Of a DNA stretch of 64,000 nucleotides, positions 45,556-63,932 are shown one piece after another. The position numbers and the translations under genes were made by a program. The stretch comes from Minisyncoccota bacterium (lineage in GTDB: Bacteria; Patescibacteriota; Minisyncoccia; Phycocordibacterales; UBA9973), in NCBI GenBank assembly GCA_041657885.1, contig JBBABB010000002.1, positions 25,483 to 89,482 on the forward strand, written 5' to 3'. The first letter of the stretch is position 1. Each line of letters starts with the position of its first letter. The notes under the pieces were generated by a model. It did not search any database and was not told where the DNA came from. It saw only the letters and a list, made by a program, of their open reading frames with translations.

Positions 45556-46452
45556 ATGAATAACTTTAAAAAATATCTTCCGAGTAAAAGTTTTTTTGCA
45601 GTTATTATCTCTATTATTGTATTAATAGGTTTGTTTTTCGGCATATTTTTTGGAATTAAAGGAATTATATCTTTATTTAAGAATAAAAAATTAGCAAAAG
45701 ATGGTAAACAAGTTGAGGTAACCGTGGGAGAAATTATCCAAAAAGATAGCAACGATAACGGTATCGCTGATTGGGAAGAGTATCTATGGGGTCTTGACCC
45801 GAAGAAAAGTGGACCAGAAAACAAAGATTTTATTTTAGCTAAGAAAAAAGCATTGGAAGAAAGTGGCGTTTTGGTTTCCGATGAGACTAAAACACTAACA
45901 GACAATGACATGCTTTCGCAAGAATTTTTCGCAACAATTATCTCCTTACAACAAACGGGTGACTTGAACACAGAGTCAATGAAATCTGTTGCGAAAGCTT
46001 TAGGGAAAAATATTGTGGCCGTTCCAATTCCTGATATTTATACAAATAATATGTTGACTGTAGAAAATGATTCTGCTACTGCAAACACCGCTTATCATGA
46101 GGCATTGGTAGAACTTATAACTAAATATAGTAATGCCGATATTGGAAGTGAGTTAACCTTTATCACTCAAGGGCTAAGCAATAAAGACCCAAGTGCACTT
46201 TATGCTGCCACAACCGTTGCTGATGCGTATAGAGCATTCGGAGAAGAACTTATCCAAATACCCGTTCCGAGGTCATTGTCTACCGCGCACTTAAGCGCCG
46301 CCAATAACTATGAAAAAGTAGGTCAGACAATAAATGACCTGGCAAAAATACTATCCGACCCGCTCATTGGGATGAAGGCAATTATCAGTTACAAAAATTA
46401 CAGTGACCTCTTGGCTTCTGACTTAGAAAAAATTTCAACAACTTTGCAATAG
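45556..46452 (+). CDS. Hypothetical N-terminally membrane-anchored protein (298 aa).
   Basis: TM segment FFAVIISIIVLIGLFFGIFFGI. Confidence 0.55.
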   Translation: MNNFKKYLPSKSFFAVIISIIVLIGLFFGIFFGIKGIISLFKNKKLAKDGKQVEVTVGEIIQKDSNDNGIADWEEYLWGLDPKKSGPENKDFILAKKKALEESGVLVSDETKTLTDNDMLSQEFFATIISLQQTGDLNTESMKSVAKALGKNIVAVPIPDIYTNNMLTVENDSATANTAYHEALVELITKYSNADIGSELTFITQGLSNKDPSALYAATTVADAYRAFGEELIQIPVPRSLSTAHLSAANNYEKVGQTINDLAKILSDPLIGMKAIISYKNYSDLLASDLEKISTTLQ

Positions 46453-46487
46453 GTAGTAATAAAGTAGTATAATATCAGTAATTATTT

Positions 46488-49400: not shown

Positions 49401-49652
49401 AATATTGGTGGTGCTGACGCTGAAAGATGCTTCAATGGAATTGATGACGATTTAGATGGATTGATAGATACAAAAGATCCTGATTGTTTTGGAGTAACAC
49501 CTGTTGTTCATTGTGTAAGAAGTGGAATTTCCACCCCATATACAGGAAGAATAAATGCTGGAAGTAAATGTTCCGATATAACAGACAGTCAATCTTGTAG
49601 TTTATATCATGAATATGAGTCTAACTTGGCATGGCAGTGTGAATGGAAATAA
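46488..49652 (+). CDS. Large secreted protein (1054 aa) with a Cys-rich C-terminus that includes a TSP3-like Ca-binding motif.
   Basis: Signal/TM IIGGMIIFVFVVSFFQFALPIQA. CFNGIDDDLDGLIDTKDPDC. Confidence 0.7.
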   Translation: MRKQTITKIIGGMIIFVFVVSFFQFALPIQATTTTNLPDLYSNPNQTSAKNPYKFTLASVLKSGILQNVIGCTGVVNKVATWMSTLLQSPAQIAKTLKAKKDKIKEQLTATCLAVKAGAQIAGQIIPSIGGLAPAIDTAMAGVKIDGVEVCKAQAEVTVDKMTDAQIEANEREAANTLKDQCFDGIAIMLAKNQLTSMTRSAMNWVNTGYGGNPFFVQNVQNFANKLEQNVVETGIDILLTPKNQNPYASDFVKSVIASRGIGKSFTSSLFNLKSDLGAFITDPQSYYTEEHLSDAEKTQMALRRAQGANNAFANDFSVGGWDGWLALTQRDQNNPLGFTMLASQYLEEAQTQAVAEKKDELLQNNGFLSQKKCVLWQVYGEDHKPKYEEGGFSPSGLAKSSFTPITQKTKPSICYKSGGECCVEWEVVTPGSIIKEQTANYLASPQRQLELVKTINDGINALFSYLISELENAGLSGLSDSVDNPANFDDNTNFISSDGNTPYDNNGAYDGFNLTRDLGNTYIHTTPIKLGNWHADTNATDSDYDKDDNYDNGKLYQGEAPIDIPSGKSAVDSYYTVTIAGKTELLLDGYNGWNEGDRAFWDGSEWQNWKKDVKDESGVIQKTNPIKKRGVIQIQQDYIVAATEILKVLPSVMTKLGELDYCIPGPNPSYLTNSTDAQSAYQDWVGSLYVGPIDAARQVYTIDHPGERTYDNLANIFTDSPSVWKTIKNSMDFLLENFDSYKYITGNIFSGSNKKQKIVDKKRNLMDVNMDYANSSLFQNFYENFDKMMNKLYFNNMTSMYNEYENRSITLPTTNSTGDKNLGYIPMAESGLDLTKNIMYYAEDIAKVTQEYSDDIAIAKVNIAKLEPIKAEVSKIIKDAQDRRDKRLLEIVNKEMCNENYTKCMQDGFGLTGQQKSAIGNRGSYCNINQTTCNENEKPVTDAQVAQYKEKYKECLAEENMNFYDADTIMNIGGADAERCFNGIDDDLDGLIDTKDPDCFGVTPVVHCVRSGISTPYTGRINAGSKCSDITDSQSCSLYHEYESNLAWQCEWK

Positions 49653-49669
49653 TAAATTATTAAAAATAT

Positions 49670-52600
49670 ATGGAAAAAAACCCTAAAAAAAGTAAAGCTC
49701 TCATCATAACAATAATTTTAATTGTCTTGCTTTTAATTGCTGGGTATTTTATTTTTAAGAATAAAGATAGTATTTTCAAAATTAAAACTTCTACTAATAC
49801 TTTTACTTCACTTCCTGCATCAGAGAATAAACCGGGATTTCTCGCTAAAATATTCTCCCCACTTCTTCCATCAAGTAATTCAAAAAATCTAGATACGGGT
49901 GAGAACATCAAGACTACATACGCAGAAGCGGGAGAAAACATTAAGAAAGGGGACATCGTTTATAAAGTAGGTACAAATAAAAATAATTTGCCTATAGTGA
50001 GAAAAACTGGACTTCAGAATCAAAATAAATTCGGTACTGCCCTTGAAGATATAAATATGGGAAGCTTTGGCAATATTGCTGTTGATAGTAGTTTCTGGGG
50101 AAGTATAAAAGATTTTTTTAATAACACAACAGGTAATATTGGAAACTGGGTAGGTGGAATATTCAGAGGTAATGGTGGAACTGGCCCTAGTAGTAATACG
50201 TGCACAAATGGTGCAACTAATCCGACTTTGTGTACTACTATTGGTGGTAATTGTATAAATAATGCAACTAATCCACCCCTCTGTACGACTATGGATAACG
50301 ATACAAACATTTTCCCCACAGTCACAGTTATAGCAACCCCAGCATCAATTGCAAAAGGTGAATCATCCACTATTAGTTGGGAATCAACAAATGCAGATGC
50401 TTGTAATGCTGGCACTGGTAATGGGACGGGGAAGACGGGGTCATTCTCAACTGGAATACTTCAATCAAGTAGGTCATATACAGTGACTTGTACTGGAGTA
50501 AATGGAACAGGTAGTGGAAATATCTTAGTGGCTGTTGGTGGAGGAGGAAATGTTTGTCCTACCGGCTGGACGGGGACTTACCCTAACTGTACTGATCCCA
50601 ATTCTAATAGTTGCCCTGCCGGTTGGACAGGGACTTTTCCTAACTGTACCAATACTGGAAACTGTCCTGTCGGTTGGACCGGAACTTATCCTGTCTGTAC
50701 TGACCCCAATTCCAATGTTTGCCCTGCGGGTTGGATGGGAACCTACCCTGACTGTACTGACCCCAATTCCAATAGTTGTCCTGTCGGGTGGACGGGGACT
50801 TTTCCTAACTGTACCAATATTGGGGGCTGCCCTCTTGGCTGGACGGGGACTTACCCTGACTGTATTGCCCCTAATTTTATATTTCCCTCTGTCACTGTTT
50901 GGGCAACACCACCAATAGTTGAATACGGTGAAAAATCGGAGATTGGTTGGGAATCAAAAAATACTGAATACTGCGTGGAGGGTGCTGTGGGTAATGCATC
51001 GCCCGATGGTAGTGTAAATAATAAAAAAGGTATAAAAGGAAAACTTACGACGGGAGCATTGCTTAGTAGTAAATCATTTACAATAACTTGTTATGACAAG
51101 AATGGAGGAGGAGTGAGTGGAAGCGTTGTTGTTTTCGTCAACCTAGCTGGAGTCCCAGATCTTCGAGCCACTGACCCGACACCAACGACAGTTCTCGTTG
51201 GAGTAAACACAATGTTCTATTCAGATATAATAAACCAAGGAACTGCATCGACTGGAGAAACTACTTTCTACAACATAATGCAATGGGCAAAACCCGCTTT
51301 TACAACGACTACGACTGGTGCAACTGGTGCGACTAGTCCTGACTCAAGTGACTCTACTGGCGGTTCTTCTTCCTCTGAAACAAACACCTTTATGGATGAA
51401 TCAAAATTAATCCCTATTGATTTGCCAAAAGTCAGGATGAAAACTATTCCAGCGGGAGAATCTCAACCTTTTACAATTGTCTATAATTTTAAAGACATAG
51501 GTACATACTATATAAGAGTTTGTGCCGATAAACAAAGTCAGACAGATGCTGGAAATATTAATGAAGGAACAAATGAAAATAACAATTGCAGCAATTGGGT
51601 AGCAATAGCAGTCACAAATTCACTTCCAACACCATGTCCTCAGCTAACAGATGCTACTGGTAAATGTGTTTCTGTAGATGAATGTCTGGCACTGAATAAA
51701 ATCGTTTCAGGGGATCAATGTGTTGACGACCCATCGGTTTGTCCTCCCCCTAAAATAAAAGATACTACTGGTAAATGTATAGATGCATCTGAAGTTATAC
51801 CACCAAATATTTGTAAAGATATAGAACAAAACCCACTAACTTTCACCCCTGAAGAGAAAGCCAGATTGGCAGTATTGCTCCGTAAGTTTTATCTAATATC
51901 CTCAACCCTTAGAACAAGTGACGATATCTCCACAATATATAGCGACATTGACCAACAGAAAATTTTTATGGGACAAATTGATGGATTAACAAAGCAGTGT
52001 TATTTGCAGATAAATGATACAGATGGATACAAAAATTTCTGTTCAAGAAATCCGAGTTTGTGTAAAACCACAGATATACCTACTTCTGGTATACCTACTC
52101 CTGGCTATAAAGACAATTATTATACACAAGGACAAAACTTAACATTAAGACGCGGAAATCCTTGGTATCAAAAAACGTCGGGTGGAACATTCCCTTACAC
52201 AGGTAATAATGTTTTTGATAAAAATGGTGTTTCGATTAAAGACCCAGAAGGAAAACCAATCACTGCTGGATACATGGATTACAACTGGTTAGAAGGTAAT
52301 TATATAGATAACGGAAATGGTAATTATTCTCCATATTTAAGCCCAAGCCAAAAAGCAAGTGGGGCGTCTTCAACTGCTTCATCAGATGGTCCTGGCTGTA
52401 AGGTTGTATCTGGTTATTATTATGGAACATTAACAAGAGATGTAATTTTAACAAAAGATACCCCTGATATAGGCATACTCATACTAATGATGCCATATCA
52501 AGGAATAATAAATGCTGCAATAGAAGCACTTACTCCGACTAAGGTATGGAGTGCAGGAGAAAGTTGTGATAAATTTAATTTAGACATTAGGGATGATCAA

Positions 52601-52753
52601 AATAATCTAATAACCAATAATTGTTATTACAACAATACAAAAATATTTGGAAATTGGAATGCCCCTCCAAGTCAAACTTTACTTGAAAGTGGCTGTAAGT
52701 GGGTAGATGGAGTGGATATGATAAACACGGAAAGGATTTTGAATATTTGGTAG
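49670..52753 (+). CDS. Large secreted protein (1027 aa) with Ig-like modules, a tandem CPxGWTGTYPxCTDPNSN repeat array and a CARDB-like module.
   Basis: Signal anchor ALIITIILIVLLLIAGYFIF. Six tandem Cys-rich units of 17-19 aa. YIRVCADKQSQTDAGNINEGTNENNNCSNW. Confidence 0.8.
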   Translation: MEKNPKKSKALIITIILIVLLLIAGYFIFKNKDSIFKIKTSTNTFTSLPASENKPGFLAKIFSPLLPSSNSKNLDTGENIKTTYAEAGENIKKGDIVYKVGTNKNNLPIVRKTGLQNQNKFGTALEDINMGSFGNIAVDSSFWGSIKDFFNNTTGNIGNWVGGIFRGNGGTGPSSNTCTNGATNPTLCTTIGGNCINNATNPPLCTTMDNDTNIFPTVTVIATPASIAKGESSTISWESTNADACNAGTGNGTGKTGSFSTGILQSSRSYTVTCTGVNGTGSGNILVAVGGGGNVCPTGWTGTYPNCTDPNSNSCPAGWTGTFPNCTNTGNCPVGWTGTYPVCTDPNSNVCPAGWMGTYPDCTDPNSNSCPVGWTGTFPNCTNIGGCPLGWTGTYPDCIAPNFIFPSVTVWATPPIVEYGEKSEIGWESKNTEYCVEGAVGNASPDGSVNNKKGIKGKLTTGALLSSKSFTITCYDKNGGGVSGSVVVFVNLAGVPDLRATDPTPTTVLVGVNTMFYSDIINQGTASTGETTFYNIMQWAKPAFTTTTTGATGATSPDSSDSTGGSSSSETNTFMDESKLIPIDLPKVRMKTIPAGESQPFTIVYNFKDIGTYYIRVCADKQSQTDAGNINEGTNENNNCSNWVAIAVTNSLPTPCPQLTDATGKCVSVDECLALNKIVSGDQCVDDPSVCPPPKIKDTTGKCIDASEVIPPNICKDIEQNPLTFTPEEKARLAVLLRKFYLISSTLRTSDDISTIYSDIDQQKIFMGQIDGLTKQCYLQINDTDGYKNFCSRNPSLCKTTDIPTSGIPTPGYKDNYYTQGQNLTLRRGNPWYQKTSGGTFPYTGNNVFDKNGVSIKDPEGKPITAGYMDYNWLEGNYIDNGNGNYSPYLSPSQKASGASSTASSDGPGCKVVSGYYYGTLTRDVILTKDTPDIGILILMMPYQGIINAAIEALTPTKVWSAGESCDKFNLDIRDDQNNLITNNCYYNNTKIFGNWNAPPSQTLLESGCKWVDGVDMINTERILNIW
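50540..50880 (+). repeat. Tandem DNA repeats with a 51-57 nt period, encoding CP.GWTGT(Y/F)P.CT(D/N)PNSN units.
   Basis: The six units are visible in the translation. Confidence 0.8.
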
Positions 52754-52863
52754 GAGGGGGAATAATTAAGAATTAATAATTAAGAATTTAAAGAGGAAAA
52801 GTAGTAAGGGGGATTAAGTAGTAGGTAGCATGTAGCAAGTAGTGAGAGAAATAATAAATACAA

Positions 52864-55476
52864 ATGATTAAGAAATTTGTGCCATACATTCTAATAGCTG
52901 TAATACTTGTGCAATTATTTGCGCCGTTTACAGTTGGTATTGGAACAAAAAATAATTTAGTTATAGAGACCAATAAAGCCGAGGCAGATGAAGATATATG
53001 GGATGGAAGCATTGATGGTTACAAAAATGCCTTTCCTAAGAGTTCAGTATCTCAAAATAGTTCATTATATGTAAATGAAACTGAAACTGATTCAGATTTT
53101 ACTGTAATAGTTGATACTGGAATTGCAGATGGTGAATCATCTGTAAATAGGTGGTATCATGTTAAACCTGAAAAAACTAAATTTGCATCTAGTGTTCAAA
53201 GCCTTCTTACTTTCGGAATAGGAGGAGACTATGTTGAATTTGAAGTAAATGGTACCTTTATTTTAGAAGTAGTTGAAGATGGGACAGGTAAAACTGGGTT
53301 CGTTGATATAACAACTACTATTTTAAACGGATATCAATATAGTAGAAAGGCAGGAATGAAGAATAAAATCACAAGAACAGTAGTGATCGATAAAAAATTA
53401 ACACCATCTGGAACGGACGGTGTATCTAGTTTAAAACCTGGCACAAAATATAATGTCTCTTTGTACTATTTATCTTCTATAGAATATGAAAACCCAGATG
53501 TTGTACAAGGAACAGGGGAAACTCTCCCAGGACTTGAGGATAATGGAACAAATTATATACAAATAGCAAGTACTTCAATAACGACAGCAACAAAAGAAGA
53601 ACAAGTATTAATAACTGGGAAAGCTATCGAGAATAGTGTTGTTAATGGTGAAGTTGAAATGCCAGAATGTAGAATAGATTTTTATAATACTATTGGTGGC
53701 TGTCTCGGGCAATTATTATACAAATTGGTCTTCCGGCCATCTTCTGCTTTATTCGCTATTACGGGGAAACTACTAGATGTCTCTATTAGTTATTCAATAA
53801 AAGATACCTCCTATAGGTCTGCATTTGTGGTTGAGGGGTGGAAACTGGTGAAAGATTTCTGTAATATGTTCTTTATTTTCATATTGCTATATATAGCATT
53901 CTCAACTATTTTGAATATTAACAGCGCCAACACAAAACAAATGATTATAAATGTTGTCATCATCGGGCTCCTGATAAATTTCAGCTTGTTTGCCACCCAA
54001 GTTATTATTGATGCTTCAAACGTGCTGACACGAGTATTTTATAATGAAAGTGCCCTTGTTGTGGGAGAGAAGGGCCTTAATGATAAAGTAGTAACCAGCC
54101 AAACTGGAAAATTTGGAGAGATAAGATTATCGGAAGCTATTGTTACAAAAATAGGACCAGTAAAACTTATAACCGATGCAGCAAAAGTTGGAACATCTAC
54201 TAATGCCAATGGGGATGAAATAGTAAACGACGGAGTTACTGCGGGAACATTTATTCTCGTCGTCCTGCTCGCGAGTGCAGTAAATATAGTAGGACTAATA
54301 GTATTCTTGTCTGTTAGTTTAATATTTATAGCGAGAGTTATCGGCTTGTGGTTGGCAATGGTATTTGCACCATTTGCATTCTTTAGTTATATGATACCCG
54401 CAATGCAAAACTGGGAAATGGTAGGATGGAAAAAATGGTGGCCAGATACAATAAAGATGGCATTCTTGGCACCAGTATTTTTGTTCTTTATGTATCTGAT
54501 TATTAAATTCTTAGGCATTATGTCTATTGCTGTTTTTGATGCAGATAATAAATCGGGAATGGATTTCGTAGTAGCGATAATGATTCCGTTTGGACTTGTG
54601 ATGGTTCTGATGTGGAAAGCAAAAGGAATTGCCAAAGATATGTCTGGTAAAATTGGTGACTATGCAACAAAAGTTGGAAAGACAATAGGAGGGGTTGCTC
54701 TAGGTGGAGCTGTAGGAGGCCTCGCGTTAGCTGGAAGACAAACTCTGGGACGTGCAGCAGCAAACTTGTCTCAAAGTAACAAATTTAGAGATTGGGCATC
54801 ACAAAGTAAGTTTGGTAAAAGCGTAGCAAAAATGACAGGTGGTATTGCTTCTGGAAGTTTTGATGCAAGAGGAGTAAAAATTGCAGGTAAAGATTTAGGT
54901 TCAGCAACAGGGCTCAAGGTAGGAAAAAATGTAAAGACTGGAGGATTTGCTAAAGGAAGAGAAGAAAAAGTTAAGAAAGAAGAAGAGTTTGCAAATAAAA
55001 TGCTTGATACAGGTGATTATGGAATGGCTGAATTACAAGGTGGAAAAATGTCAGCAAAAAGAGCAGATAGTGTCGTAGAACAAATGAATAAGGGCAGAGC
55101 AAATGAAAATAAAATGACAGCTTTTGAAATGGGAACAATGCGAGCAAGATTAGTTGGTGGTAATGGGTTAGAATATAAAATGGCAAGAGAGGTGGCTGAT
55201 CAAATGAATTTTGCTAGAAGAAATTCAACAGCAGATTATTTATCAAGAAGTAAATTTATGACAAATAAAATAAAAGCTACTAAGATTAGAAAAAGTGTAG
55301 ATCAAATGAAAACAAGTAGAGATCTAGCAGCTACAGTAGCAGCCCTTGCAGCAGCTCAAAAAGCTGCCGATGGGGGAGGAGGTAAACCAGCGACACACAC
55401 AACACCAACACCCCACACAACACCAACAACGCTGACTACTCCTAGTGCTCCAACAGGTGGAGGTGGACATCACTAA
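52864..55476 (+). CDS. VirB6/TrbL/ConG-like polytopic membrane protein (870 aa) with a large N-terminal extracytoplasmic domain. Candidate T4SS channel component.
   Basis: N-terminal signal/TM, about 330-aa soluble domain, then at least 5 TM helices. K/G-rich tail ending HTTPTPHTTPTTLTTPSAPTGGGGHH. Confidence 0.6.
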   Translation: MIKKFVPYILIAVILVQLFAPFTVGIGTKNNLVIETNKAEADEDIWDGSIDGYKNAFPKSSVSQNSSLYVNETETDSDFTVIVDTGIADGESSVNRWYHVKPEKTKFASSVQSLLTFGIGGDYVEFEVNGTFILEVVEDGTGKTGFVDITTTILNGYQYSRKAGMKNKITRTVVIDKKLTPSGTDGVSSLKPGTKYNVSLYYLSSIEYENPDVVQGTGETLPGLEDNGTNYIQIASTSITTATKEEQVLITGKAIENSVVNGEVEMPECRIDFYNTIGGCLGQLLYKLVFRPSSALFAITGKLLDVSISYSIKDTSYRSAFVVEGWKLVKDFCNMFFIFILLYIAFSTILNINSANTKQMIINVVIIGLLINFSLFATQVIIDASNVLTRVFYNESALVVGEKGLNDKVVTSQTGKFGEIRLSEAIVTKIGPVKLITDAAKVGTSTNANGDEIVNDGVTAGTFILVVLLASAVNIVGLIVFLSVSLIFIARVIGLWLAMVFAPFAFFSYMIPAMQNWEMVGWKKWWPDTIKMAFLAPVFLFFMYLIIKFLGIMSIAVFDADNKSGMDFVVAIMIPFGLVMVLMWKAKGIAKDMSGKIGDYATKVGKTIGGVALGGAVGGLALAGRQTLGRAAANLSQSNKFRDWASQSKFGKSVAKMTGGIASGSFDARGVKIAGKDLGSATGLKVGKNVKTGGFAKGREEKVKKEEEFANKMLDTGDYGMAELQGGKMSAKRADSVVEQMNKGRANENKMTAFEMGTMRARLVGGNGLEYKMAREVADQMNFARRNSTADYLSRSKFMTNKIKATKIRKSVDQMKTSRDLAATVAALAAAQKAADGGGGKPATHTTPTPHTTPTTLTTPSAPTGGGGHH

Positions 55477-55483
55477 TTAAACA

Positions 55484-56449
55484 TTGTTTAAACAAAATTA
55501 TAATCATATGGAAACAGAAATAGAAGAAATAATAAAACAACAATTGGAATATTTACCAAAAGAGATTGTGGATCTTTTTACTAATCCAAAATTAAGTGAT
55601 AAAATATTTGAAATAGGAAAAGAAAATAAAATTAATATTGAACAGTTAGATATTTTTCAAACTGAAACCTTCTTATTGATATTAGGGTTAACTAATTCTG
55701 ATGAGTATGAAGAGGAGTTGAGAAATAAGTTAAATATAAATAAAGAAACTATAGATAATATAAAAAAGGGGATATATTCATTTATCTCAAATGAAACACT
55801 GGAAAAAATTAAAGAAATATATAAACAAACAACAAACGAGATCTTTGAGGGAGGGGACCCAGACATAGACAAACCACTTATTTTAGATCCTCGTTTCGAA
55901 AATGCCCCACAAGAAACTCAGAAAGCTATTGCTAAATCAGGATGGAAAGAGAGGTTGTATTCAATCGCACCAATATATAAACTCAATGTTGAACAAATGG
56001 GAATTTTGGAAGAAACTACCATAAAAGTAATACTTGGTGAAATACACCCAGACAAATATGAAGATGAATTAGCTTCCAAAATAACAATACCAAAAGAAGA
56101 TGTCGCAAATCTTGTAATTGATATCAATGAAAAAATTTTTAAAGTAATACGCGGGGTAGAAAAGAAATATTGGGATAAAGAAAAAACAATTACAAATGAA
56201 GATGAAATTCCTCTTCCTCCATATGCAAAAATAATTAATAATGAAGATGAAATTCCTCTTCCTCCTCCTAGTATCAAACTTGATACAAAAATAATAGAAA
56301 AAACTGAACTAATTCAACCAATTATTGGAATAACAAATACTCCTCAAAATATAATAGAGGAAAAATTAAAGGGTGTAACAGTAAGTGACCATACGGTATC
56401 AGACCATTCATTACCTAAAATGAATGACCCTTATCGGGAAACGATTTAA
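55484..56449 (+). CDS. Hypothetical soluble protein (321 aa) with a tandem NEDEIPLPP repeat.
   Basis: ORF. The 45-bp direct DNA repeat at about 56196-56270 encodes the duplicated peptide. Confidence 0.5.
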   Translation: MFKQNYNHMETEIEEIIKQQLEYLPKEIVDLFTNPKLSDKIFEIGKENKINIEQLDIFQTETFLLILGLTNSDEYEEELRNKLNINKETIDNIKKGIYSFISNETLEKIKEIYKQTTNEIFEGGDPDIDKPLILDPRFENAPQETQKAIAKSGWKERLYSIAPIYKLNVEQMGILEETTIKVILGEIHPDKYEDELASKITIPKEDVANLVIDINEKIFKVIRGVEKKYWDKEKTITNEDEIPLPPYAKIINNEDEIPLPPPSIKLDTKIIEKTELIQPIIGITNTPQNIIEEKLKGVTVSDHTVSDHSLPKMNDPYRETI

Positions 56450-56540
56450 TTCCTCCCCTCCTTACCAAGGAGGGGAATGAGGGGAGGTTCTTAATTAATT
56501 AGGAACCCCTCCCCAGCCCTCCCCAAAGGGAAGGGAATCC
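56449..56540. repeat. Family B GC-rich palindromic element, intergenic copy (reverse complement of the rsmA copy).
   Basis: TTCCTCCCCTCCTTaccAAGGAGGGGAATGAGGGGAGGTTCTTAATTAATTAGGAACCCCTCCCCAGCCCTCCCCAAAGGGaAGGGAA. Confidence 0.85.
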
Positions 56541-56565
56541 TATTTATTAATGTTATAATATAAAA

Positions 56566-56976
56566 ATGCAATTCAAAGTCCCACAATTTATTGATATCGA
56601 GGACAAATTATTTGGCCCTTTTACTTTCTTTCAGTTTGTATACCTTGTGGGAGGAGCTGGAATAGTGTTTGTCATATATAAAATTTTCCCTTTGTGGATT
56701 GGTATTTTTCTTATTATTCCAGTTGCTATATTATCTGTCCTGCTTGTCTTTTATAGAATAAACGGAAAACCTTTTATTTATTACCTTCAGGCTGGAGCTA
56801 GTTATCTCGTTTCAAGTAAATTGTATATATGGAAGCAGAGATTAATAAATCCAAATAGCAAGAAAAAAGAGGAGGAAGCACAAGCTCCACAAATGGTTTC
56901 GGTCATTCCGATGACATCAAATGACAAATTGAGAGACATATCTTGGAGTTTGGATGTGGAAGGGAAGGAGAAGTAA
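56566..56976 (+). CDS. Small two-TM membrane protein (136 aa), candidate VirB3/PrgI-like T4SS component.
   Basis: Two adjacent hydrophobic helices. The position just upstream of the VirB4-like ORFs is inferred from gene context. Confidence 0.45.
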   Translation: MQFKVPQFIDIEDKLFGPFTFFQFVYLVGGAGIVFVIYKIFPLWIGIFLIIPVAILSVLLVFYRINGKPFIYYLQAGASYLVSSKLYIWKQRLINPNSKKKEEEAQAPQMVSVIPMTSNDKLRDISWSLDVEGKEK

Positions 56977-56985
56977 TAATGTGTG

Positions 56986-57051
56986 AATTCCCCTCTTGAG
57001 GGGTGCCTGAAAGGCGGGGTGGATGAATTTGAGGGGAATTAAAATTCTTTC
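56986..57051. repeat. Family C element, shortened copy (AATTCCCCTCTTGAGGGGTGCCTGAAAGGCGGGGTGGAT...GAGGGGAATT).
   Basis: The left arm matches 44458-44497. Outer inverted ends are retained. Confidence 0.75.
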
Positions 57052-57078
57052 AGTAACAAATTATGTTATAATTATAAT

Positions 57079-57732
57079 ATGGCCATTAGTGCAAAAAGCT
57101 CTCAAGAGTTTGTATCAATTAAAGAAGTTAGAAACGGTATCATCGTCCTAAAAGACGGGGGACTTCGGTCTGTGCTAGTGGCATCTTCTTTGAACCTTTC
57201 TTTAAAATCCTCCGAGGAGCAGGCTGCAATAATAAATGGATTTCAAGGTTTTATAAATGGGTTAGATTTTTCTACTCAAATAGTTGTGCAATCCCGTCGG
57301 CTAGACATTAGACCATACCTTCTTCTTTTAGAAAACAGAATTAAAGAGCAAGTAGAACCACTTTTAAAGATACAAACGAAAGAATATATTAATTTTATAA
57401 AATCTTTCACAGATGAAGTGAACATTATGACAAAAACTTTCTTTATTGTGGTTCCTTATACTCCTACAATAATAAAATCTAGTGGTAAGATGATGGATAG
57501 TTTACTTGGTGGAGGTGCACCAAAGAAACAGGTTGAAGATACAAAGAGAGCGATTGACATGGCCTCTTTTGAGGAAAAGCGCACCCAGCTTGACCAACGG
57601 GTAAGAGTTATAAGCGAAGGACTTGGAGGAATGGGAATTAGAACATCTGAACTTAAAACAGACCAGGTTATTGAACTTTTTTATAAAACATTCAATCCAG
57701 GAGATATTAGTCAGGGAATTAAATTACAATAA
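57079..57732 (+). CDS. VirB4/TcpF/PrgJ-type ATPase, N-terminal domain (217 aa), encoded as a separate ORF abutting the ATPase ORF.
   Basis: KEVRNGIIVLKDGGLRSVLVASSLNLSLKSSEEQAAII resembles the N-terminus of Gram-positive VirB4-like proteins. Stop TAA at 57730-57732, next ATG at 57735, different frame. Confidence 0.55.
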   Translation: MAISAKSSQEFVSIKEVRNGIIVLKDGGLRSVLVASSLNLSLKSSEEQAAIINGFQGFINGLDFSTQIVVQSRRLDIRPYLLLLENRIKEQVEPLLKIQTKEYINFIKSFTDEVNIMTKTFFIVVPYTPTIIKSSGKMMDSLLGGGAPKKQVEDTKRAIDMASFEEKRTQLDQRVRVISEGLGGMGIRTSELKTDQVIELFYKTFNPGDISQGIKLQ

Positions 57733-57734
57733 GT

Positions 57735-59570
57735 ATGTCAATATTTTCAAATTTATTAGGAAAAAAGAATAACATCTCTAAAAACAAGAGCATGGTTATG
57801 CCTGTTTTACCAAGTGAAATATATAAAGCGGCAGCACTTGAACTTCAGGATATTATCGCTCCATCAGCTCTTCAGATAACTCCAAGGTCACTAAACCTCG
57901 GAGACAAAATAGCAAGAACATTCTTTGTAATATCATATCCACGGTATCTTAGTGATAATTGGTTCTCTCCAATTATAAATTTGGATAAGGTTTTTGATGT
58001 ATCTATTTTTATCCACCCTATTGACACAGCAGAAATATTGAGAACATTTCAGAAGAAAGTAGCCGAGGTTCAGAGTCAAATCTCTGTTCGTGAATCAAGG
58101 GGGCTAGTGCGAGACCCAATGCTTGATACTGCATACCAAGACCTTGAAAATTTACGAGATAATCTTATGCAAGCTCAAGAGAAAATGTTTAATGTTGGTC
58201 TTTATATCACAGTTTATGCTGAGAATGATAACGATTTATTTAAAATTGAAAATGAAATTAAATCTCTTCTTGAATCAAAACTCATCTATCTAAAGCCAGC
58301 ACTATTTCAGCAGGCTGAAGGATTTAAAAGTGTTATTCCTTTAGGAACAGACGTGCTAGGTATTCACCAAAAACTCAACACTGAACCACTTTCAAGTATT
58401 TTCCCATTCGTCTCTTTTGACTTAACTGATGATAAAGGAATATTGTATGGGGTCAATCGCCACAATTCTAGCTTGATTCTTTTTGATAGATTTTCCCTCC
58501 CAAACTACAACTCCATAATTTTTGCAACTGCTGGAGCTGGTAAATCTTATGCCGCTAAATTAGAAATTATTCGTACTTTAATGTTTGACACAGAAGTTAT
58601 CGTCATAGACCCAGAGCGTGAATACGAATATCTAGCTGAAGCAGTAGGAGGTAGATATTTTAACATCGCTCTTTCTTCCGACCACCATATAAATCCTTTT
58701 GAATTACCTATTCCCACAGGAGATGAAACAGGGGCAGATGTTCTCCGCTCAAATACTATAAATCTTGTAGGGTTGTTCCGCATAATGCTTGGAGGATTAA
58801 CACCAGAAGAAGATTCTATTATAGATAGTGCTATCACAGAGACATATGCCTTAAAAGATATTACCGCGGAGTCAGACTTTAGAAATATTGAGGTTCCATT
58901 ATTAACGGACTTTGAGATGGTTCTCTCTGGAATGGAGGGAAGCGATTCGCTTGTCCAGCGCTTGACCAAATATACTCACGGGTCTTGGGCATCATTTTTA
59001 AACCAACCATCAAACGTTGATATCAACCGAAAATTTATAGTTTTCTCTGTCAGAGATATGGAGGATGAACTAAAACCTGTAGCAATGTATATTGTTACTC
59101 ATTATATTTGGAATTCTATTCGTAAAAATATTAGAAAAAGATTACTTGTAGTAGATGAGGCCTGGTGGATGATGAAATCAGAAGATACTGCATCGTTCCT
59201 CTATTCTATTGCTAAAAGAGGACGAAAATACTGGCTAGGACTTGCAACTATTACTCAAGACGTAGGGGATTTTATGAAAAGCGCTTATGGCATACCTATT
59301 ATTACTAACTCTTCTATTCAATTACTTCTAAAACAGTCCCCAGCAACAATAGATGTCTTACAAAAAACATTCAGTCTTACAGAGGAAGAGAAATATTTGC
59401 TGTTAGAGGCAAATGTTGGAGAAGGTATCTTTTTTGTTGGCCTAAAACACGTTGCAGTTAAAACAATCGCTTCTTATACCGAAGACCAAATTATCACATC
59501 TGACCCTTCACAAATTTTGGCTATCAAAAAAGCAAAAGGGGAATTATTGGCGGCGGGGAGTAGTAATTAG
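57735..59570 (+). CDS. VirB4/TraC/ConE-like T4SS ATPase, C-terminal motor portion (611 aa).
   Basis: Walker A FATAGAGKSYAAK, Walker B LLVVDEAWWMM. Walker A sits about residue 265, so about 200 N-terminal residues appear to be supplied by the preceding ORF. Confidence 0.85.
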   Translation: MSIFSNLLGKKNNISKNKSMVMPVLPSEIYKAAALELQDIIAPSALQITPRSLNLGDKIARTFFVISYPRYLSDNWFSPIINLDKVFDVSIFIHPIDTAEILRTFQKKVAEVQSQISVRESRGLVRDPMLDTAYQDLENLRDNLMQAQEKMFNVGLYITVYAENDNDLFKIENEIKSLLESKLIYLKPALFQQAEGFKSVIPLGTDVLGIHQKLNTEPLSSIFPFVSFDLTDDKGILYGVNRHNSSLILFDRFSLPNYNSIIFATAGAGKSYAAKLEIIRTLMFDTEVIVIDPEREYEYLAEAVGGRYFNIALSSDHHINPFELPIPTGDETGADVLRSNTINLVGLFRIMLGGLTPEEDSIIDSAITETYALKDITAESDFRNIEVPLLTDFEMVLSGMEGSDSLVQRLTKYTHGSWASFLNQPSNVDINRKFIVFSVRDMEDELKPVAMYIVTHYIWNSIRKNIRKRLLVVDEAWWMMKSEDTASFLYSIAKRGRKYWLGLATITQDVGDFMKSAYGIPIITNSSIQLLLKQSPATIDVLQKTFSLTEEEKYLLLEANVGEGIFFVGLKHVAVKTIASYTEDQIITSDPSQILAIKKAKGELLAAGSSN

Positions 59571-59571
59571 A

Positions 59572-59666
59572 TACACCCCCTCTGCTTTTAGCATCTCCCC
59601 CTTCGCAGGGGGCGAGGAATTCTTCCTCCCTTGCGAAGGGGAGGTGTCCAAAGGACGGAGGGGTGA
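59572..59666. repeat. Family A GC-rich element, full two-armed palindromic copy of about 95 bp.
   Basis: ACACCCCCTCTGCTTTTAGCATCTCCCCCTTCGCAGGGGGCGAGG-aattc-TTCCTCCCTTGCGAAGGGGAGGTGTCCAAAGGACGGAGGGGTG. Confidence 0.8.
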
Positions 59667-59730
59667 ATCAAATTATAGGTTGTTAGAGAAGCAGGATTAT
59701 TATATAATATATAAAGTGAAATTTACAAAA

Positions 59731-60711
59731 ATGAAAATCTTTCTCGTCGGATTTTTTATTCTGGGGATAATAAATATCCCTTATATTTCTTCAGCTGAAA
59801 TGCAAATTGAAGTGCAGGAAGGAGAAATAAACGTGGAAACAAGTCCAAACAATCCACAACCATACCAAGATGTAACAATCAATCTATCTAGTTATGCAAC
59901 CGATTTAAACAAAGCAACAATAATGTGGCAAGCGGAATCGGGAGTTGTTCTATCTGGGATAGGTAAAACGAGTTATTCTTTTAAAGCTCTAGGCCCAAAT
60001 ACCATCACTGTTTTTAATATCAGTGTTACCCCAGCAGGCTCTATGAACACAATAAATAAGAGGGTGGTTATTGCTCCATCTGAAATTGAAGTTATGTGGG
60101 AATCTGCTGACGGATATACTCCGCCTTTTTATAGAGGGAAGTCTCTTCCAATTAGTGGTGCAGTGATAAGAGCTGTGGCAATTCCAAATACAAACACAAT
60201 AAAATCTGGTAGTGGAAGTATTACCTATACGTGGAAAAATGGTGACAACACAGTACTTGAAGCTTCTGGATATAATAAAAATGCTTATGTATTTAAAAAT
60301 AGTATGTTTGATGAGAAAAATACGATAACGGTAATCGCTTCGTCAGTCAGTGGGGATTATGGGGCAGAAAACACAATAGATATACCACTCTATCAACCTA
60401 AAATAATTTTTTATAAAAAATCACCAACAGATGGTGTTCTTTATAATAAAGCTCTTGATAAAGAAACTGCTATGCCTGAAGATGAAATGACAATCGTGGG
60501 TGAACCATATTTTTTATCTATCAAAGGGAAAGAAGGTTCTTTTAATTACAACTGGAAAATAAATGGGAGTAGTATACAAACACCAACAAAGAAAACAGAA
60601 TTAACAATAAGGCCAAATTCTCGTGGAGGATATGCTACTATAAGTTTAGTAATTGAAAATATAAATGAATTATTCCAAAGTGTTAGTAATCAGCTAAAAA
60701 TCAATCTTTAA
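59731..60711 (+). CDS. Secreted beta-rich protein with Ig-like modules (about 326 aa from ATG 59731).
   Basis: Signal peptide MKIFLVGFFILGIINIPYISSA. The ORF-track start at 59452 is a spurious extension through the GC-rich repeat. Confidence 0.6.
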   Translation: MKIFLVGFFILGIINIPYISSAEMQIEVQEGEINVETSPNNPQPYQDVTINLSSYATDLNKATIMWQAESGVVLSGIGKTSYSFKALGPNTITVFNISVTPAGSMNTINKRVVIAPSEIEVMWESADGYTPPFYRGKSLPISGAVIRAVAIPNTNTIKSGSGSITYTWKNGDNTVLEASGYNKNAYVFKNSMFDEKNTITVIASSVSGDYGAENTIDIPLYQPKIIFYKKSPTDGVLYNKALDKETAMPEDEMTIVGEPYFLSIKGKEGSFNYNWKINGSSIQTPTKKTELTIRPNSRGGYATISLVIENINELFQSVSNQLKINL

Positions 60712-60712
60712 T

Positions 60713-61981
60713 ATGAAAAAAAATGAAAATAAAAATATTTATGGAGTAGTTGGCGGGTTTTTCCTTTCTATTTTTATAATATTTCCTTTTTTTGTAACAT
60801 TAAAAGCGGAAGCTGTAACCACATTTTATGAGTATATTAATGTGGGAGGGGTACAAAGTAGAATTTGTGGAATGAAATATGAAGCGATGTGTAATATTGC
60901 TTTACAACAAATCCCTGGATGTGAAAAATTTTCATGCTCAAAAACTTCGCAACTAGATAATTATATTTGTGTTAGTGCAATTCCTCCTATTTGTCCCAAA
61001 GACGAGGTGCAAACAGTTGACCCTCAAAAAGACACCCCAAAAAGTGATGTTTATACATTTCTCGCTCCTTTAACAGAAGAAAAAACAGCACCAAATAATA
61101 TTGGAGATTATTTTAATTGGATATTTACTTTAGCCATAGGTCTTTGTGGTGCCCTTGCTGTTATTATGATTGTGATAGGAGGAGTAACATATATGGGAAG
61201 TGAATCTATTTTTGGCAAAACAGAGGCAAAGAAACAAATAACAAATGCAATACTGGGTTTATTGATTGCTCTTGGGGCTTTTGCACTACTTAATACTATT
61301 AATCCAGACCTTCTGAAAACCGATATTAATATAAAGCAAGTTAGTGCAGAGATAGTAAACTTTGATGTTTCTGGATCAGCAACGTTTGATGGGAAGCCCA
61401 TTAAAATCAATTTCAATAAAGAGGCTTACCCGGCTGCAAAAATCGCTTCAGAAAAAACAGGTGTTGAGACCGCTTTTATTCTAGCTATGTTTGCCCAAGA
61501 AACTGGCAGTGGAAGTAATACCGGGGGTTGTAATTATTCAAGTGCAAATATGGGGAGCGGTCAATTAGATTCCCTAAAGACAGTTGCAACTAGTTTGGGT
61601 CTTGATTATACAAAAATAAATATGTCTTGTAGTGGAGGAGGTAGTTCTCATGGAGGAGCGATAGGATATACTCAATTTCTCCCAGGCACATGGCTTCTAT
61701 ATCGTGCCGAGGCAAAACAATTGCTAGGGCATGAACCAAATCCATGGAACACTGCTGATGCTCTGATGATGACAGCTTTATTCCTAAAGAGGAATGGGGG
61801 TGCTGGTTCTAATCCTGCTAGTCAAGAAGCGGCGGCGTGTAAATATTTCGGTAGTTGTTCTGTGGTTGTTAGTTGCGGGGGTGGAAAAACAGGGACTTAC
61901 GGACAATGTATAATGGGTAAAAAATTGAGTATACAACAACAGATAGATGAGGCAATTAAAAATGGAGAAATAAATAAATAA
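60713..61981 (+). CDS. Membrane protein with an N-terminal signal, a two-helix hydrophobic hairpin and a C-terminal SLT-type lytic transglycosylase domain (VirB1/CwlT-like).
   Basis: AQETGSG ... GAIGYTQFLPGTW resembles the SLT motif E-S...GxxGxMQxxPxTW. Hydrophobic hairpin NWIFTLAIGLCGALAVIMIVIGG...ILGLLIALGAFALL. Confidence 0.6.
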   Translation: MKKNENKNIYGVVGGFFLSIFIIFPFFVTLKAEAVTTFYEYINVGGVQSRICGMKYEAMCNIALQQIPGCEKFSCSKTSQLDNYICVSAIPPICPKDEVQTVDPQKDTPKSDVYTFLAPLTEEKTAPNNIGDYFNWIFTLAIGLCGALAVIMIVIGGVTYMGSESIFGKTEAKKQITNAILGLLIALGAFALLNTINPDLLKTDINIKQVSAEIVNFDVSGSATFDGKPIKINFNKEAYPAAKIASEKTGVETAFILAMFAQETGSGSNTGGCNYSSANMGSGQLDSLKTVATSLGLDYTKINMSCSGGGSSHGGAIGYTQFLPGTWLLYRAEAKQLLGHEPNPWNTADALMMTALFLKRNGGAGSNPASQEAAACKYFGSCSVVVSCGGGKTGTYGQCIMGKKLSIQQQIDEAIKNGEINK

Positions 61982-61982
61982 C

Positions 61983-63458
61983 ATGTCTAAAAAAACAATT
62001 ATCATTTTTATATCAGTGTTTGCAATCGTCGGAGCGATAATTTTCGGCGTTATTTCATTAATAAATAAAAAAAATAGTAATACCACAGACAATACAACTC
62101 CCTGGTATCAAAGCTTCAATCCATTTGGAACAGGTACACAAGACACCAATAATACTGGTGAACAATCAACAGACACAGAAGGACAGGGAACAACAGAAAC
62201 AAAAACTTCTAGGTTTTATCAAATAACAGATTTTGCTATAGCTGGGGCAACATTTCTAGAAGATACAAGACCAATATTTTACAACGAAACCACTCCAGAG
62301 CCAGAACCAATCAAAACAGTAATCAATGCTGACACAAAAGAGGGGAGAAAAGAAATTCAAATATTTTTAAATAAAGCATTATCTTTAACACCACCACTTG
62401 TAGTTGACGGGAGTTTTGGAAAATTAGCAATTCAAGCCATAAAAGATTTTCAAGAATTAAATGGGCTTACTATTACTGGTAAGATTGACACAGAAACTGC
62501 TCCATTTTTCACAAAGACAACTACTGCAGTTGTAGAGAAAAACCAATACGAGCAAGCTCCATCTGTAAGATATACAGGAAGAATGAACGGCCATATTTAT
62601 AAAATGTTCCTAGATACAAAGATAGAGGAGAAAATTTCAAACTCTACCATACCGGGTATTTATGAAGCATTTTTCAATAATATTGCAAACACTGTTATAT
62701 ATAGATATCTTTCTTCGGATAATTCAATAAGCAGTTTTACGGCAACTCTCGGAGAACCCAAGGGGGAATTTTTACCAAAAGATATTTCGGATTTGATCAC
62801 ATCTCCAGATAAAATAAAATTTTTCTATTTAACAGAAAATAGTAACGGGATATCGGGTGTCGTTAAAAATTTCGGGGATACAAAAATGAGTGTCGTGTTC
62901 AGTTCACCACTCACGGAGTGGCTATCGCAATGGGCAAACAACAAAGATATATATCTAACAACAAAAGCATCGTATGGTGTTGATGGGAGTGTTTTCCTCT
63001 TAAATATGACAAACAAAACAATTTCTAAAATATTTGGCGGAGTAAAGGGCCTCACAACATTGGTCAATCCAAATAGTTCTCTGGTCTTATATAGCGTAGC
63101 GACGGGTACTGGGCCAAGGCTTGGGATTTTTGACATAACAAAACATACAACAAAAGATTTAGGAATATATGGTTTACCTGAAAAATGTATTTGGTCCAGC
63201 GACAATATTACAATTTATTGTGCCTTACCAAACGTTATTACTGGCAATCAATACCCAGATTATTGGTATCAAGGGTTAATATCTTTTGATGATTATTTTA
63301 TAAAAATGGACACCACATCAAGCGGGACGACGACAATAGCAAATTCAACCAACGAAACACCGATAGATGGCACACACCTATTCTTAAGTGATAAAGAGGA
63401 CACACTATTCTTCACAAATAAAAAGGACTCCACACTGTGGAGCTTGAACTTAAGGTAA
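61983..63458 (+). CDS. Membrane-anchored protein with a PG_binding_1-like peptidoglycan-binding domain and a C-terminal beta-rich domain.
   Basis: TM IIIFISVFAIVGAIIFGVISLI. LVVDGSFGKLAIQAIKDFQELNGLTITGKIDTETAPFF. Confidence 0.6.
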   Translation: MSKKTIIIFISVFAIVGAIIFGVISLINKKNSNTTDNTTPWYQSFNPFGTGTQDTNNTGEQSTDTEGQGTTETKTSRFYQITDFAIAGATFLEDTRPIFYNETTPEPEPIKTVINADTKEGRKEIQIFLNKALSLTPPLVVDGSFGKLAIQAIKDFQELNGLTITGKIDTETAPFFTKTTTAVVEKNQYEQAPSVRYTGRMNGHIYKMFLDTKIEEKISNSTIPGIYEAFFNNIANTVIYRYLSSDNSISSFTATLGEPKGEFLPKDISDLITSPDKIKFFYLTENSNGISGVVKNFGDTKMSVVFSSPLTEWLSQWANNKDIYLTTKASYGVDGSVFLLNMTNKTISKIFGGVKGLTTLVNPNSSLVLYSVATGTGPRLGIFDITKHTTKDLGIYGLPEKCIWSSDNITIYCALPNVITGNQYPDYWYQGLISFDDYFIKMDTTSSGTTTIANSTNETPIDGTHLFLSDKEDTLFFTNKKDSTLWSLNLR

Positions 63459-63461: not shown

Positions 63462-63932
63462 CTATATACTACTATCCACGTATTTAATAACAACCCGTCG
63501 AGTTGAGCCATACCCCTCTGATTCTGTTTTAATATCTTTAGCGCCTTCTAAAAACATATGGACAATTTTTCTCTCATAGGCAGGCATTGGATCAATCTCA
63601 ATATTGCTCTTAAAATAGCGAGCACGTTCTGCCATCATGTGAGCAATATTTTTTAAATTTTCAAAACGCTTTTTCTGATAACCATTAACATCAATAAAAA
63701 TAGTTGGACCCTTTTCTTCGGTTTCAACTACATCTTTTTTTACTATTTTTTGAACAAGATGATTTAAAGAGCGTAGTGTTTCTCCATCTCGCCCAATAAT
63801 GAAACCAGAATCAGGAGTTTCTATCATGCACCAAAGCATTCCATTTTCATTAGAAAATTCAAGTTTAGAAATAACACACGACGCGTGTTTAAAAATTTGC
63901 TCTATAGCTTCTTTTATCTTGTCTTCTTGCAT
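63462..63932 (-). CDS. jag: Jag/KhpB-family RNA-binding protein (KH-like plus R3H).
   Basis: C-terminal R3H-like PMPAYERKIVHMFLEGAKDIKTESEGYGSTRRVVIKY. Confidence 0.75.
   Translation of the reverse strand: MQEDKIKEAIEQIFKHASCVISKLEFSNENGMLWCMIETPDSGFIIGRDGETLRSLNHLVQKIVKKDVVETEEKGPTIFIDVNGYQKKRFENLKNIAHMMAERARYFKSNIEIDPMPAYERKIVHMFLEGAKDIKTESEGYGSTRRVVIKYVDSSI

Follow-up and report, generated by a model that had tools for sequence, protein, structure and literature searches.

The window, which is the whole 64,000-nucleotide stretch of Minisyncoccota bacterium DNA analysed here (assembly GCA_041657885.1, contig JBBABB010000002.1), carries near its 3' end a block of genes for a type IV secretion system (T4SS). 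We conclude that this locus is very probably a chromosomal, vertically inherited and non-conjugative T4SS of the Patescibacteria clade, which derives from the Gram-positive MPF-FATA conjugation machinery. Its substrate is probably not relaxase-processed DNA, and its function is likely to be macromolecule exchange with a host cell. The gene set comprises TrsD and VirB4, PrgI/VirB3, a VirB6-like subunit, a VirB2-like module, a peptidoglycan enzyme and lineage-specific envelope proteins; its inner-membrane T4SS parts appear to be complete, and it includes no DNA-processing parts. An original prediction, made from the DNA letters alone, had described a Gram-positive-type T4SS-like locus without coupling protein or relaxase; the + strand open reading frames (ORFs) that it listed, of 870, 321, 136, 217, 611, 422 and 491 residues, were all confirmed. 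Its statement that the window contains no VirD4 or relaxase also held, as a Pfam scan of every ORF of at least 100 residues in the 64-kb window detected no VirD4/TraG/TcpA coupling protein, no FtsK and no relaxase family. The window thus lacks the combination of a relaxase and a VirD4/TcpA-type coupling protein (T4CP) that characterizes Gram-positive conjugative T4SSs.

Eight consecutive + strand ORFs fill positions 52864–63458, and two ORFs of more than 1000 residues lie directly upstream. These two giant genes had been placed correctly at 46488–49652 and 49670–52753; the conserved block reaches further upstream, to 45556. For comparison we used 81 related loci, namely L001 and 80 from a scan of one genome per species (VirB4 identity 74–88%, RAAC4_OD1_1 included). 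The gene order common to them is ksgA, a 298-residue transmembrane (TM) protein, giant protein 1 (in some followed by giant protein 2), the VirB6-like protein, a repeat protein, PrgI, TrsD, VirB4, an immunoglobulin (Ig)-like protein, a pilin/enzyme protein, a 491-residue protein and, on the opposite strand, jag. On the 3' side of the T4SS block the related loci carry jag (−), yidC (−), rnpA (−), dnaA (+) and dnaN (+). In the window the block is flanked by ksgA (44590–45477) and by the convergent jag/khpB (63462–63932), and dnaA lies past the window end. Because this order is kept in the related loci, we take the conserved block to start at 45556 and to adjoin the origin region just beyond the window. 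All eleven genes of the block 45556–63458 are intact ORFs.

The location of the block is constant: in 51 of the 55 loci that have enough flanking sequence, dnaA follows VirB4 at a median distance of 5.8 kb. Instead of the variable location of genes carried by mobile elements, we therefore see fixed synteny beside the oriC genes in about 80 species. The GC content of the locus (0.359) equals that of the remaining window (0.355), and the fixed synteny and equal GC content together identify a vertically inherited core locus and not a mobile element. The original prediction was right that minimal T4SS-like loci occur in genomes of the candidate phyla radiation, although it understated the point (PMC10633639, PMC12102498), and the locus is not an isolated minimal island but one inherited vertically next to oriC. 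Across the 81 loci, median identity to the window proteins was 78.5% for VirB4, 65% for DnaA, 59% for DnaN, 57% for TrsD, 56% for UvrD, 50% for KsgA, 49% for PrgI and 47% for Jag. Lower values were obtained for the 491-residue protein (38%), the VirB6-like protein (34%), the Ig protein (33%), the repeat protein (31%) and the giant proteins (27–35%). VirB4 is thus under strong purifying selection, with a stronger constraint than on DnaA, DnaN, UvrD, KsgA and Jag encoded beside it, which is unusual for a secretion ATPase. Within single proteins, membrane and core parts could be aligned in nearly all of 46–67 orthologues and extracellular parts in few; the poorly alignable parts are residues 40–250 of the VirB6-like protein, residues beyond 500 of giant protein 1 and residues 1–190 of the 491-residue protein.

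Some further properties of the region were noted. The T4SS block is transcribed toward jag-yidC-rnpA/dnaA, and with oriC at dnaA its transcription would meet replication head-on. GC skew in the window tracks the coding strand and gives no position for the origin. A promoter and terminator scan returned 70 promoter-like sites where 68.8 were expected, which is chance level.

The ATPase of the locus (57735–59570, + strand, 611 residues) is a VirB4 protein. It scored 370.5 bits over 550 residues against the NCBIfam model conju_CD1110, whose curated cut-off is 325, and its closest solved structure is the C-terminal domain of Thermoanaerobacter VirB4 (PDB 4ag5, E = 7e-40), with TrwK/VirB4 of R388 as the next closest; a match to P-loop_TraG was also found (E = 6e-25). 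Walker A (ATAGAGKS, with GAGKS at residues 267–271) and Walker B (VVDEAW at residue 472) are both intact, and Walker B is intact in all 82 VirB4 sequences compared. The window VirB4 is 100% identical to a protein of a 'Candidatus Paceibacterota' metagenome-assembled genome, and the source is a Nomurabacteria-like member of the Paceibacteria. In Paceibacteria and Nomurabacteria, over 100 cluster representatives share 87–91% identity with the window protein and are all about 610 residues long, and every one of the 120 homologues among the matches listed measures about 590–623 residues. The VirB4 of RAAC4_OD1_1, a genome in the published dataset of Quinonero-Coronel et al. 2025 (PMC12102498), is 87% identical to that of the window, which suggests that the window VirB4 falls inside the Patescibacteria clade.

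Directly upstream, a 217-residue protein (57079–57732, + strand) matches TrsD/TraD of NCBIfam (E = 8e-6) and positions 102–233 of VirB4_plasma (E = 2e-7), consistent with a separate, TrsD-type counterpart of the VirB4 N-terminal domain. TrsD was found in 81 of 81 loci. The two ORFs are in different frames and are joined as TAA-gt-ATG. Among the 81 loci, L033 was set aside as its TrsD match lies on the other strand; in the 80 comparable ones TrsD and VirB4 never form one ORF, with gaps from −17 to +497 nucleotides and with frame offsets of 0, 1 and 2 all present. Since the two genes are separate in all 80 loci and in all three frame offsets, the split is ancestral, and its counterpart is the TrsD/TrsE gene pair of pGO1-type systems. 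The VirB4-like ATPase in two ORFs that had been predicted is therefore correct as to VirB4, and its two ORFs are the native trsD and virB4 genes, not the products of a frameshift.

The gene preceding trsD encodes a small membrane protein of 136 residues (56566–56976, + strand) that matches PrgI (PF12666, E = 1.5e-7, above the cut-off) and TcpE (E = 1.4e-4), in agreement with its earlier description as VirB3-like; PrgI was detected in 77 of the 81 loci. The first gene after the giants (52864–55476, + strand) encodes an 870-residue polytopic protein in which an N-terminal hydrophobic segment is followed by five or more TM segments. Its AlphaFold model (72 homologues; mean predicted local distance difference test score, pLDDT, 76) has a beta-rich ectodomain at residues ~50–250, a helical membrane core at ~277–614 and a helical or disordered tail; the ectodomain is variable, the TM core is conserved and the C-terminal tail is rich in Gly and Lys. 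Only fold comparison of this predicted structure points to a VirB6-like channel subunit, since Pfam and NCBIfam gave no VirB6 family match, a profile of the protein found nothing among PDB sequences, and TrbL matched weakly (E = 0.0017) in one of 46 orthologues. An hhalign comparison with the 264-residue protein upstream of clostridial PrgI was not significant (E = 0.17), with a GR...P motif aligned, and a PF19590 flag precomputed on some homologues could not be reproduced. The predicted fold and the beta-rich ectodomain support the original description of a VirB6/ConG-like protein with a big N-domain, and a VirB6-like polytopic membrane protein near virB4 is accordingly part of the locus.

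Between these two genes lies a conserved accessory gene (55484–56449, + strand) for a 321-residue protein, predicted from its lack of any TM segment to be cytoplasmic. It contains two internal repeats of about 70 residues (32% identity, E = 5e-11) and a duplicated NEDEIPLPP motif, as expected for the soluble repeat protein described before, and it matched no Pfam or NCBIfam family. In 50 loci an orthologue follows the VirB6-like gene and precedes PrgI. A relationship to the DUF5663 protein at 42108–42416 was rejected on comparison. In L001, the closest relative retrieved, a gene for 126 residues with a 23S_rRNA_IVP domain (PF05635; L001:8354–8734) separates the repeat-protein gene from PrgI; the window has no such gene.

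The wall enzyme of the locus, two genes downstream of VirB4, also carries its pilin-like module. The 422-residue protein (60713–61981, + strand) consists of a signal/TM segment, a Cys-containing ectodomain, a VirB2-like hairpin at residues ~114–205 and an SLT_2 lytic transglycosylase domain at ~237–373 (E = 2e-8), so that domains lie on both sides of the hairpin. The original prediction had recognized an SLT transglycosylase with a hydrophobic hairpin; the enzyme assignment stands, and the hairpin is a VirB2-like pilin module, matching PF18895 T4SS_pilin (E = 4e-6, residues 134–193), an Mbov_0395 pilin-like family (E = 4e-6) and also TrbC. TM segments were predicted at residues 12–30, 137–155 and 175–193, and the hairpin loop (residues 156–174) contains three Lys and two Glu; VirB2/TrbC pilins are small proteins in which a basic loop connects two hydrophobic helices, and they polymerize into a pilus. 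The catalytic-Glu motif of SLT_2 (aqETGsG) and GAIGYTQFLPGTW align to MltB/SltB1, which predicts a catalytically competent wall-enzyme domain with a membrane anchor, as in VirB1/CwlT-type T4SS hydrolases. In VirB2 both termini lie outside the membrane. From the predicted TM topology of the fusion and this known topology of VirB2, the chain would run from the signal to an ectodomain outside, through one TM segment inward, via the Lys-containing loop and through the second TM segment outward, and the enzyme would be placed outside the membrane.

A hidden Markov model search of all ORFs of at least 40 residues revealed no stand-alone pilin in the 64-kb window, and the hairpin of the 422-residue protein is the sole pilin-like module there. 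A 125-residue clostridial protein considered as a pilin homologue found no support on comparison. PF18895 was detected in 58 of 70 aligned orthologues, in which only residues ~112–205 can be aligned across species, and in this lineage the hairpin is always within a larger protein (for example at L006:12945–14426, L007:12863–14284, L009:12863–14278 and L012:11864–13714). When the 94-residue hairpin was searched against 1.84 billion representative proteins, 15,754 matches were obtained at E up to 1e-3; 143 of the best 150 contain just one hairpin, and in 134 of these the chain continues C-terminally for at least 120 residues. 'Poly-pilin' proteins also occur, with 17 tandem hairpins in P0446 (1775 residues), 6 in P0484 (555 residues) and 2–4 in P0396, P0403, P0431, P0433 and P0363.

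What follows the hairpin differs from species to species. The C-terminal ~155–280 residues of the 70 orthologues fall into 22 unrelated BLAST clusters. By Pfam, the orthologues carry NlpC/P60 (11), VanY (8), YkuD (5), Peptidase_M15_4 (3), SLT_2 (3), Amidase_5 (3), SLT (2) and SLT_4 (1) domains, and several have no match in this region. The N-terminal ectodomains are more diverse still (38 clusters, some with TIG domains). Where the window has SLT_2, even the ten closest species (VirB4 86–90% identical) show SLT, VanY (in three of them), YkuD or domains of unknown type. The domain type agrees with that of the nearest VirB4 neighbour in 13 of 67 loci (5.2 expected by chance), and among pairs whose VirB4 proteins are at least 90% identical just 12% have the same type; the swap is 'fast' relative to a very slow VirB4, and the comparison spans rather distant species (KsgA identity about 50%). 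In this lineage the sole VirB2-like module would then be no free pilin but the constant middle of a three-part protein, between a variable ectodomain and a swappable enzyme. As a tentative proposal, the hairpin could be a T4SS-docking or pilus-display module that brings an enzyme specific for the host wall to the contact site, which would make it a determinant of host range. The constraint on the ATPase above that on DnaA, the fast turnover of the extracellular parts and the changing bond specificity of the enzyme form the pattern expected of a host-contact device.

Two further proteins of the block are predicted to act on the wall side. The gene between virB4 and the fusion (59731–60711, + strand) encodes a membrane-anchored or secreted protein of 326 residues with a TM segment at residues 3–21. 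An AlphaFold model (pLDDT 83) is all-beta with three domains, and Foldseek against PDB returned the Ig domains of Hoc, NCAM and Sidekick (E ~1e-8), consistent with three tandem Ig/fibronectin type III-like beta-sandwich domains. The secreted Ig-like protein of the original prediction is thereby supported; the true start of its gene is 59731 and not the TTG at 59452. The protein occurs in 77 of 81 loci and is probably a wall-spanning scaffold or an adhesion module. It was also considered as the missing VirB8 analogue and rejected, since its three domains are beta-sandwiches and not the NTF2 fold. The last gene of the block (61983–63458, + strand) encodes a protein of 491 residues with a TM segment at 6–24 and a PG_binding_1 domain at 120–172 (E = 5.5e-10), which bears out its designation as a peptidoglycan-binding membrane protein. 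In the 67 loci that have it, a C-terminal domain of about 300 residues (190–491) is conserved throughout, PG_binding_1 was found in only 8 of 50 orthologues, and a comparison with PDB sequences gave nothing significant.

The 5' part of the block opens with a 298-residue protein (g298; 45556–46452, + strand), whose orthologue stands directly after ksgA and before giant protein 1 in 39 loci. It has one N-terminal TM segment (residues 13–31) and a conserved DTDGDGIxDWEE-like motif; CagC matched weakly on the TM segment (E = 0.008), and a profile built from its orthologues had no match in PDB. Giant protein 1 (46488–49652, + strand, 1054 residues) has an N-terminal hydrophobic segment at residues 9–27 and would be secreted or anchored. 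Its orthologues occupy the same position in 46 loci at a median identity of 27%, with conservation confined to residues ~150–500 and a Cys-rich, variable C-terminus. The window protein had no Pfam or PDB sequence match; among 40 orthologues, Pfam found T2SS-T3SS_pil_N in two and DUF4141 in one (E = 1.4e-5), which is too sparse to interpret. It is a candidate surface or host-contact component. Giant protein 2 (49670–52753, + strand, 1027 residues), also secreted or anchored by virtue of a hydrophobic segment at residues 11–29, showed no similarity to giant protein 1 and has a detectable orthologue in only 16 loci. It contains six tandem Cys repeats of about 17 residues at ~295–400, of the form CP(x)GW(T/M)GT(Y/F)P(x)C (CPxGWTGTxPxC), long low-complexity Thr/Ser/Gly stretches and a CARDB match (E = 7e-4) below the Pfam cut-off (20.1 against 22.7 bits). 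Two more very large proteins with CARDB are encoded at 1336–5859 (− strand, 1507 residues) and 9320–11965 (− strand, 881 residues) and are possibly surface proteins of the same kind.

Taken together, the components suggest how the machine might operate. A TrsD/VirB4 hexamer would dock on PrgI and on an oligomer of the VirB6-like protein in the cytoplasmic membrane and would supply the energy to build a short channel through the wall. The protein with the pilin hairpin would associate with the VirB6 platform as VirB2 does, and the docked hairpin would place the fused enzyme where the wall must open, in the cell's own wall and possibly in that of the host too. The three-Ig and peptidoglycan-binding proteins might scaffold the channel in the wall, and the giant secreted proteins and the variable ectodomains might make contact with the host.

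That the ATPase is of the HerA/FtsK type and its neighbours are unrelated envelope proteins might be thought from the Pfam matches to DUF87/HerA (E = 1.7e-6) and AAA_10 and from the public annotation as a 'DUF87 domain-containing protein'. We regard this as virtually out of the question: the score above the curated CD1110 cut-off, the 4ag5 match and the comparison with clostridial conjugation modules, in which the nearest plasmid relatives are annotated VirB4, rule such an ATPase out, and PrgI, TrsD, the pilin module and the VirB6-like fold adjoin it. The original prediction had itself named an FtsK/HerA-type ATPase with neighbours lacking T4SS homology as its refutation; since the family and structure matches are to VirB4 and the neighbours, including the SLT protein, do have T4SS homology, this is not what we found. 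Decay of an integrated conjugative element, with the split VirB4 as a frameshifted pseudogene, would account for two ORFs in different frames around TAA-gt-ATG and for the missing T4CP and relaxase, but is extremely improbable. The 80-locus comparison rules out the frameshift, and against decay speak also the uniform length of VirB4 homologues, the universally intact Walker B, the eleven intact genes and the fact that pGO1-type systems also have a separate TrsD, which in Patescibacteria is the commonest T4SS component.

Several points weigh against a non-conjugative T4SS for exchange with a host. To our knowledge there has been no experiment on any Paceibacteria T4SS. No VirB8-like (NTF2-fold) component was found in the locus. 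Some Paceibacteria relatives have been reported on archaeal hosts without peptidoglycan, which would argue for an action of the fused enzyme restricted to the wall of the cell itself. The absence of T4CP and relaxase covers 64 kb of genome, so that a distant T4CP is possible, and in many Patescibacteria T4CP-like genes do lie far from virB4, among them genes 83, 85 and 469 of RAAC4_OD1_1. We nevertheless consider it very unlikely that the locus still serves conjugation with the help of a coupling protein and a relaxase from another part of the genome. Of 3,035 Patescibacteria genomes only 103 have a relaxase, and T4CP homologues are rarely near virB4 (PMC12102498); the locus keeps its position beside dnaA and the GC content of its flanks, it shows no integrase, oriT-type module or element boundary, its VirB4 is more conserved than DnaA, and in Southlakia the T4SS genes are essential and the T4CP is not. 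A more serious alternative, though still an unlikely one, is that the machine mainly exports proteins, with the fusion and perhaps the giants as effectors or toxins that attack the host wall in the manner of polymorphic toxins, where a constant trafficking module is joined to a swappable toxic domain. The 22 unrelated clusters behind a conserved hairpin, the poor agreement of domain type between nearest VirB4 neighbours (13 of 67 loci) and even between pairs with VirB4 at least 90% identical (12%), the SLT, VanY, YkuD or unknown domains of the ten closest species, and the hypervariable ectodomains of the VirB6-like and giant proteins would all fit it. Gram-positive conjugation, however, also employs diverse hydrolases (SLT, CHAP, NlpC/P60, LytM) on the donor wall, as in PrgK, TraG, CwlT and TcpG; the hairpin predicts a membrane-integral and not a soluble protein; the T4CP, the usual effector receptor, is not in the window; and no immunity gene turned up beside the fusion, although no search for one was made. 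Within the host-exchange reading that we prefer, uptake of host nucleic acids or building blocks appears somewhat more likely than effector export, on the reasoning of PMC12102498 and PMC11665869 and because the usual export receptor, a T4CP, is missing.

The rest of the window is housekeeping, with genes for NusA, H+-PPase, trigger factor, ClpP, RNase Y, CCA-adding enzyme, PNPase, ComM, UvrD, KsgA and four tRNAs. Among them are an AbiEi/AbiEii toxin-antitoxin pair (7867–9290) and a Fic-domain protein (17628–18704). The competence helicase ComM, which is Mg-chelatase-like, is encoded at 36154–37722, 15 kb upstream of the T4SS, and a XerC/D-type integrase and a PaaX_M/Cas2-like domain protein at 30234–31223 and 37758–38357; for none of these has a link to the T4SS been established.

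Among known systems, the relaxase-independent, VirB4-driven Helicobacter pylori ComB and archaeal Ced/Ted resemble the window in both respects, and these import DNA; PMC11665869 and PMC12102498 cite them as functional precedent. There is no specific homology beyond VirB4 (the window VirB4 matches CedB weakly, E = 6e-8, far below the cut-off), and the outer-membrane parts of the ComB type are absent from the window. The Staphylococcus pGO1/pSK41 trs operon (TrsC, TrsD, TrsE, TrsG) has, like the window, a separate TrsD just upstream of a VirB4-type ATPase. It belongs, however, to a conjugative plasmid with relaxase and T4CP and without a pilin, and according to PMC12102498 TrsD is specific to the pGO1 subclass and pGO1 has no VirB6 homologue. 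The closest plasmid VirB4 proteins (28–35% identity) are CD1110-family ATPases of Firmicutes and Actinobacteria. Their CTn2/CD1110-type module is represented by Clostridium perfringens pSXP-169_2, with the order MobC, relaxase, DUF3801, VirD4, two small proteins, PrgI, VirB4 and an SLT protein. It shares with the window the NCBIfam VirB4 family and the colinear PrgI, VirB4 and SLT hydrolase; unlike the window, it has the DNA-processing half directly upstream, its VirB4 is unsplit (783 residues) and it is plasmid-borne.

The sole experimentally tested relative is the T4SS of Southlakia epibionticum ML1 (SEML1_0006–0019). As shown by Wang et al. 2023 (PMC10633639), epibiotic growth requires this T4SS, which has neither a coupling protein nor a relaxase. 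This comparison with Saccharibacteria, which the original prediction had called for, shows the same Gram-positive type, pilin genes and absence of a recognizable T4CP or relaxase, and the low locus-tag numbers suggest a near-origin position as well. Southlakia, a member of a different class (Saccharimonadia), has six stand-alone divergent pilins and separate peptidase and lysozyme genes downstream of virB4, whereas the window has a single pilin module fused to a wall enzyme. Few machines of these ultrasmall bacteria are known to be indispensable for their host-dependent life, and the Patescibacteria T4SS is among them. This T4SS has been reviewed (PMC12857230), its possible role as a channel for taking up material from the host is considered in a review of 2025 and a perspective of 2024, and a 2026 preprint (bioRxiv 10.64898/2026.06.21.733656) describes tubular structures, possibly T4SS pili, at the parasite-host interface.

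The closest match is the Patescibacteria clade itself. Quinonero-Coronel et al. found VirB4 in 2,417 of 3,035 Patescibacteria genomes; 2,425 VirB4 proteins form one clade nested in MPF-FATA, present in 2,407 of the 3,035 genomes and accompanied by TrsD as the most abundant component, PrgI/VirB3, VirB6 and PF18895 VirB2-like pilins, with VirB1 associated with virB4 mainly in Paceibacteria and the locus close to dnaA, dnaN, rnpA, ksgA and rpmH (PMC12102498). The window presents the same features: a monoderm VirB4, a separate TrsD beside it, PrgI, a VirB6-like protein, PF18895, no relaxase or T4CP in the cluster, and a position near dnaA, ksgA and rnpA. Table S3 of that study annotates genes 531 (VirB6), 533 (VirB3), 534 (TrsD), 535 (VirB4) and 537 (VirB2) of RAAC4_OD1_1, and genes 531–537 (our L009) match the window genes in position and order: VirB6, the repeat protein, VirB3/PrgI, TrsD, VirB4, the Ig protein and the PF18895 protein, with no relaxase or T4CP nearby and beside ksgA/dnaA. 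The system is therefore already described, as a member of a known clade from which nothing essential differs, and given this known system and an orthologous locus annotated in a published table, its novelty is nil. The published account omits the fused enzyme domains and the Ig, peptidoglycan-binding, repeat and upstream giant proteins; its text mentions fusions only for VirB3-VirB4, its table lists the orthologue of our fusion simply as 'VirB2', and in the literature searched we found no description of the pilin-enzyme architecture. Compared with its known relatives, the window thus adds no new kind of system, and its little-noticed feature is a pilin-like hairpin fused to a wall enzyme whose type varies between species.

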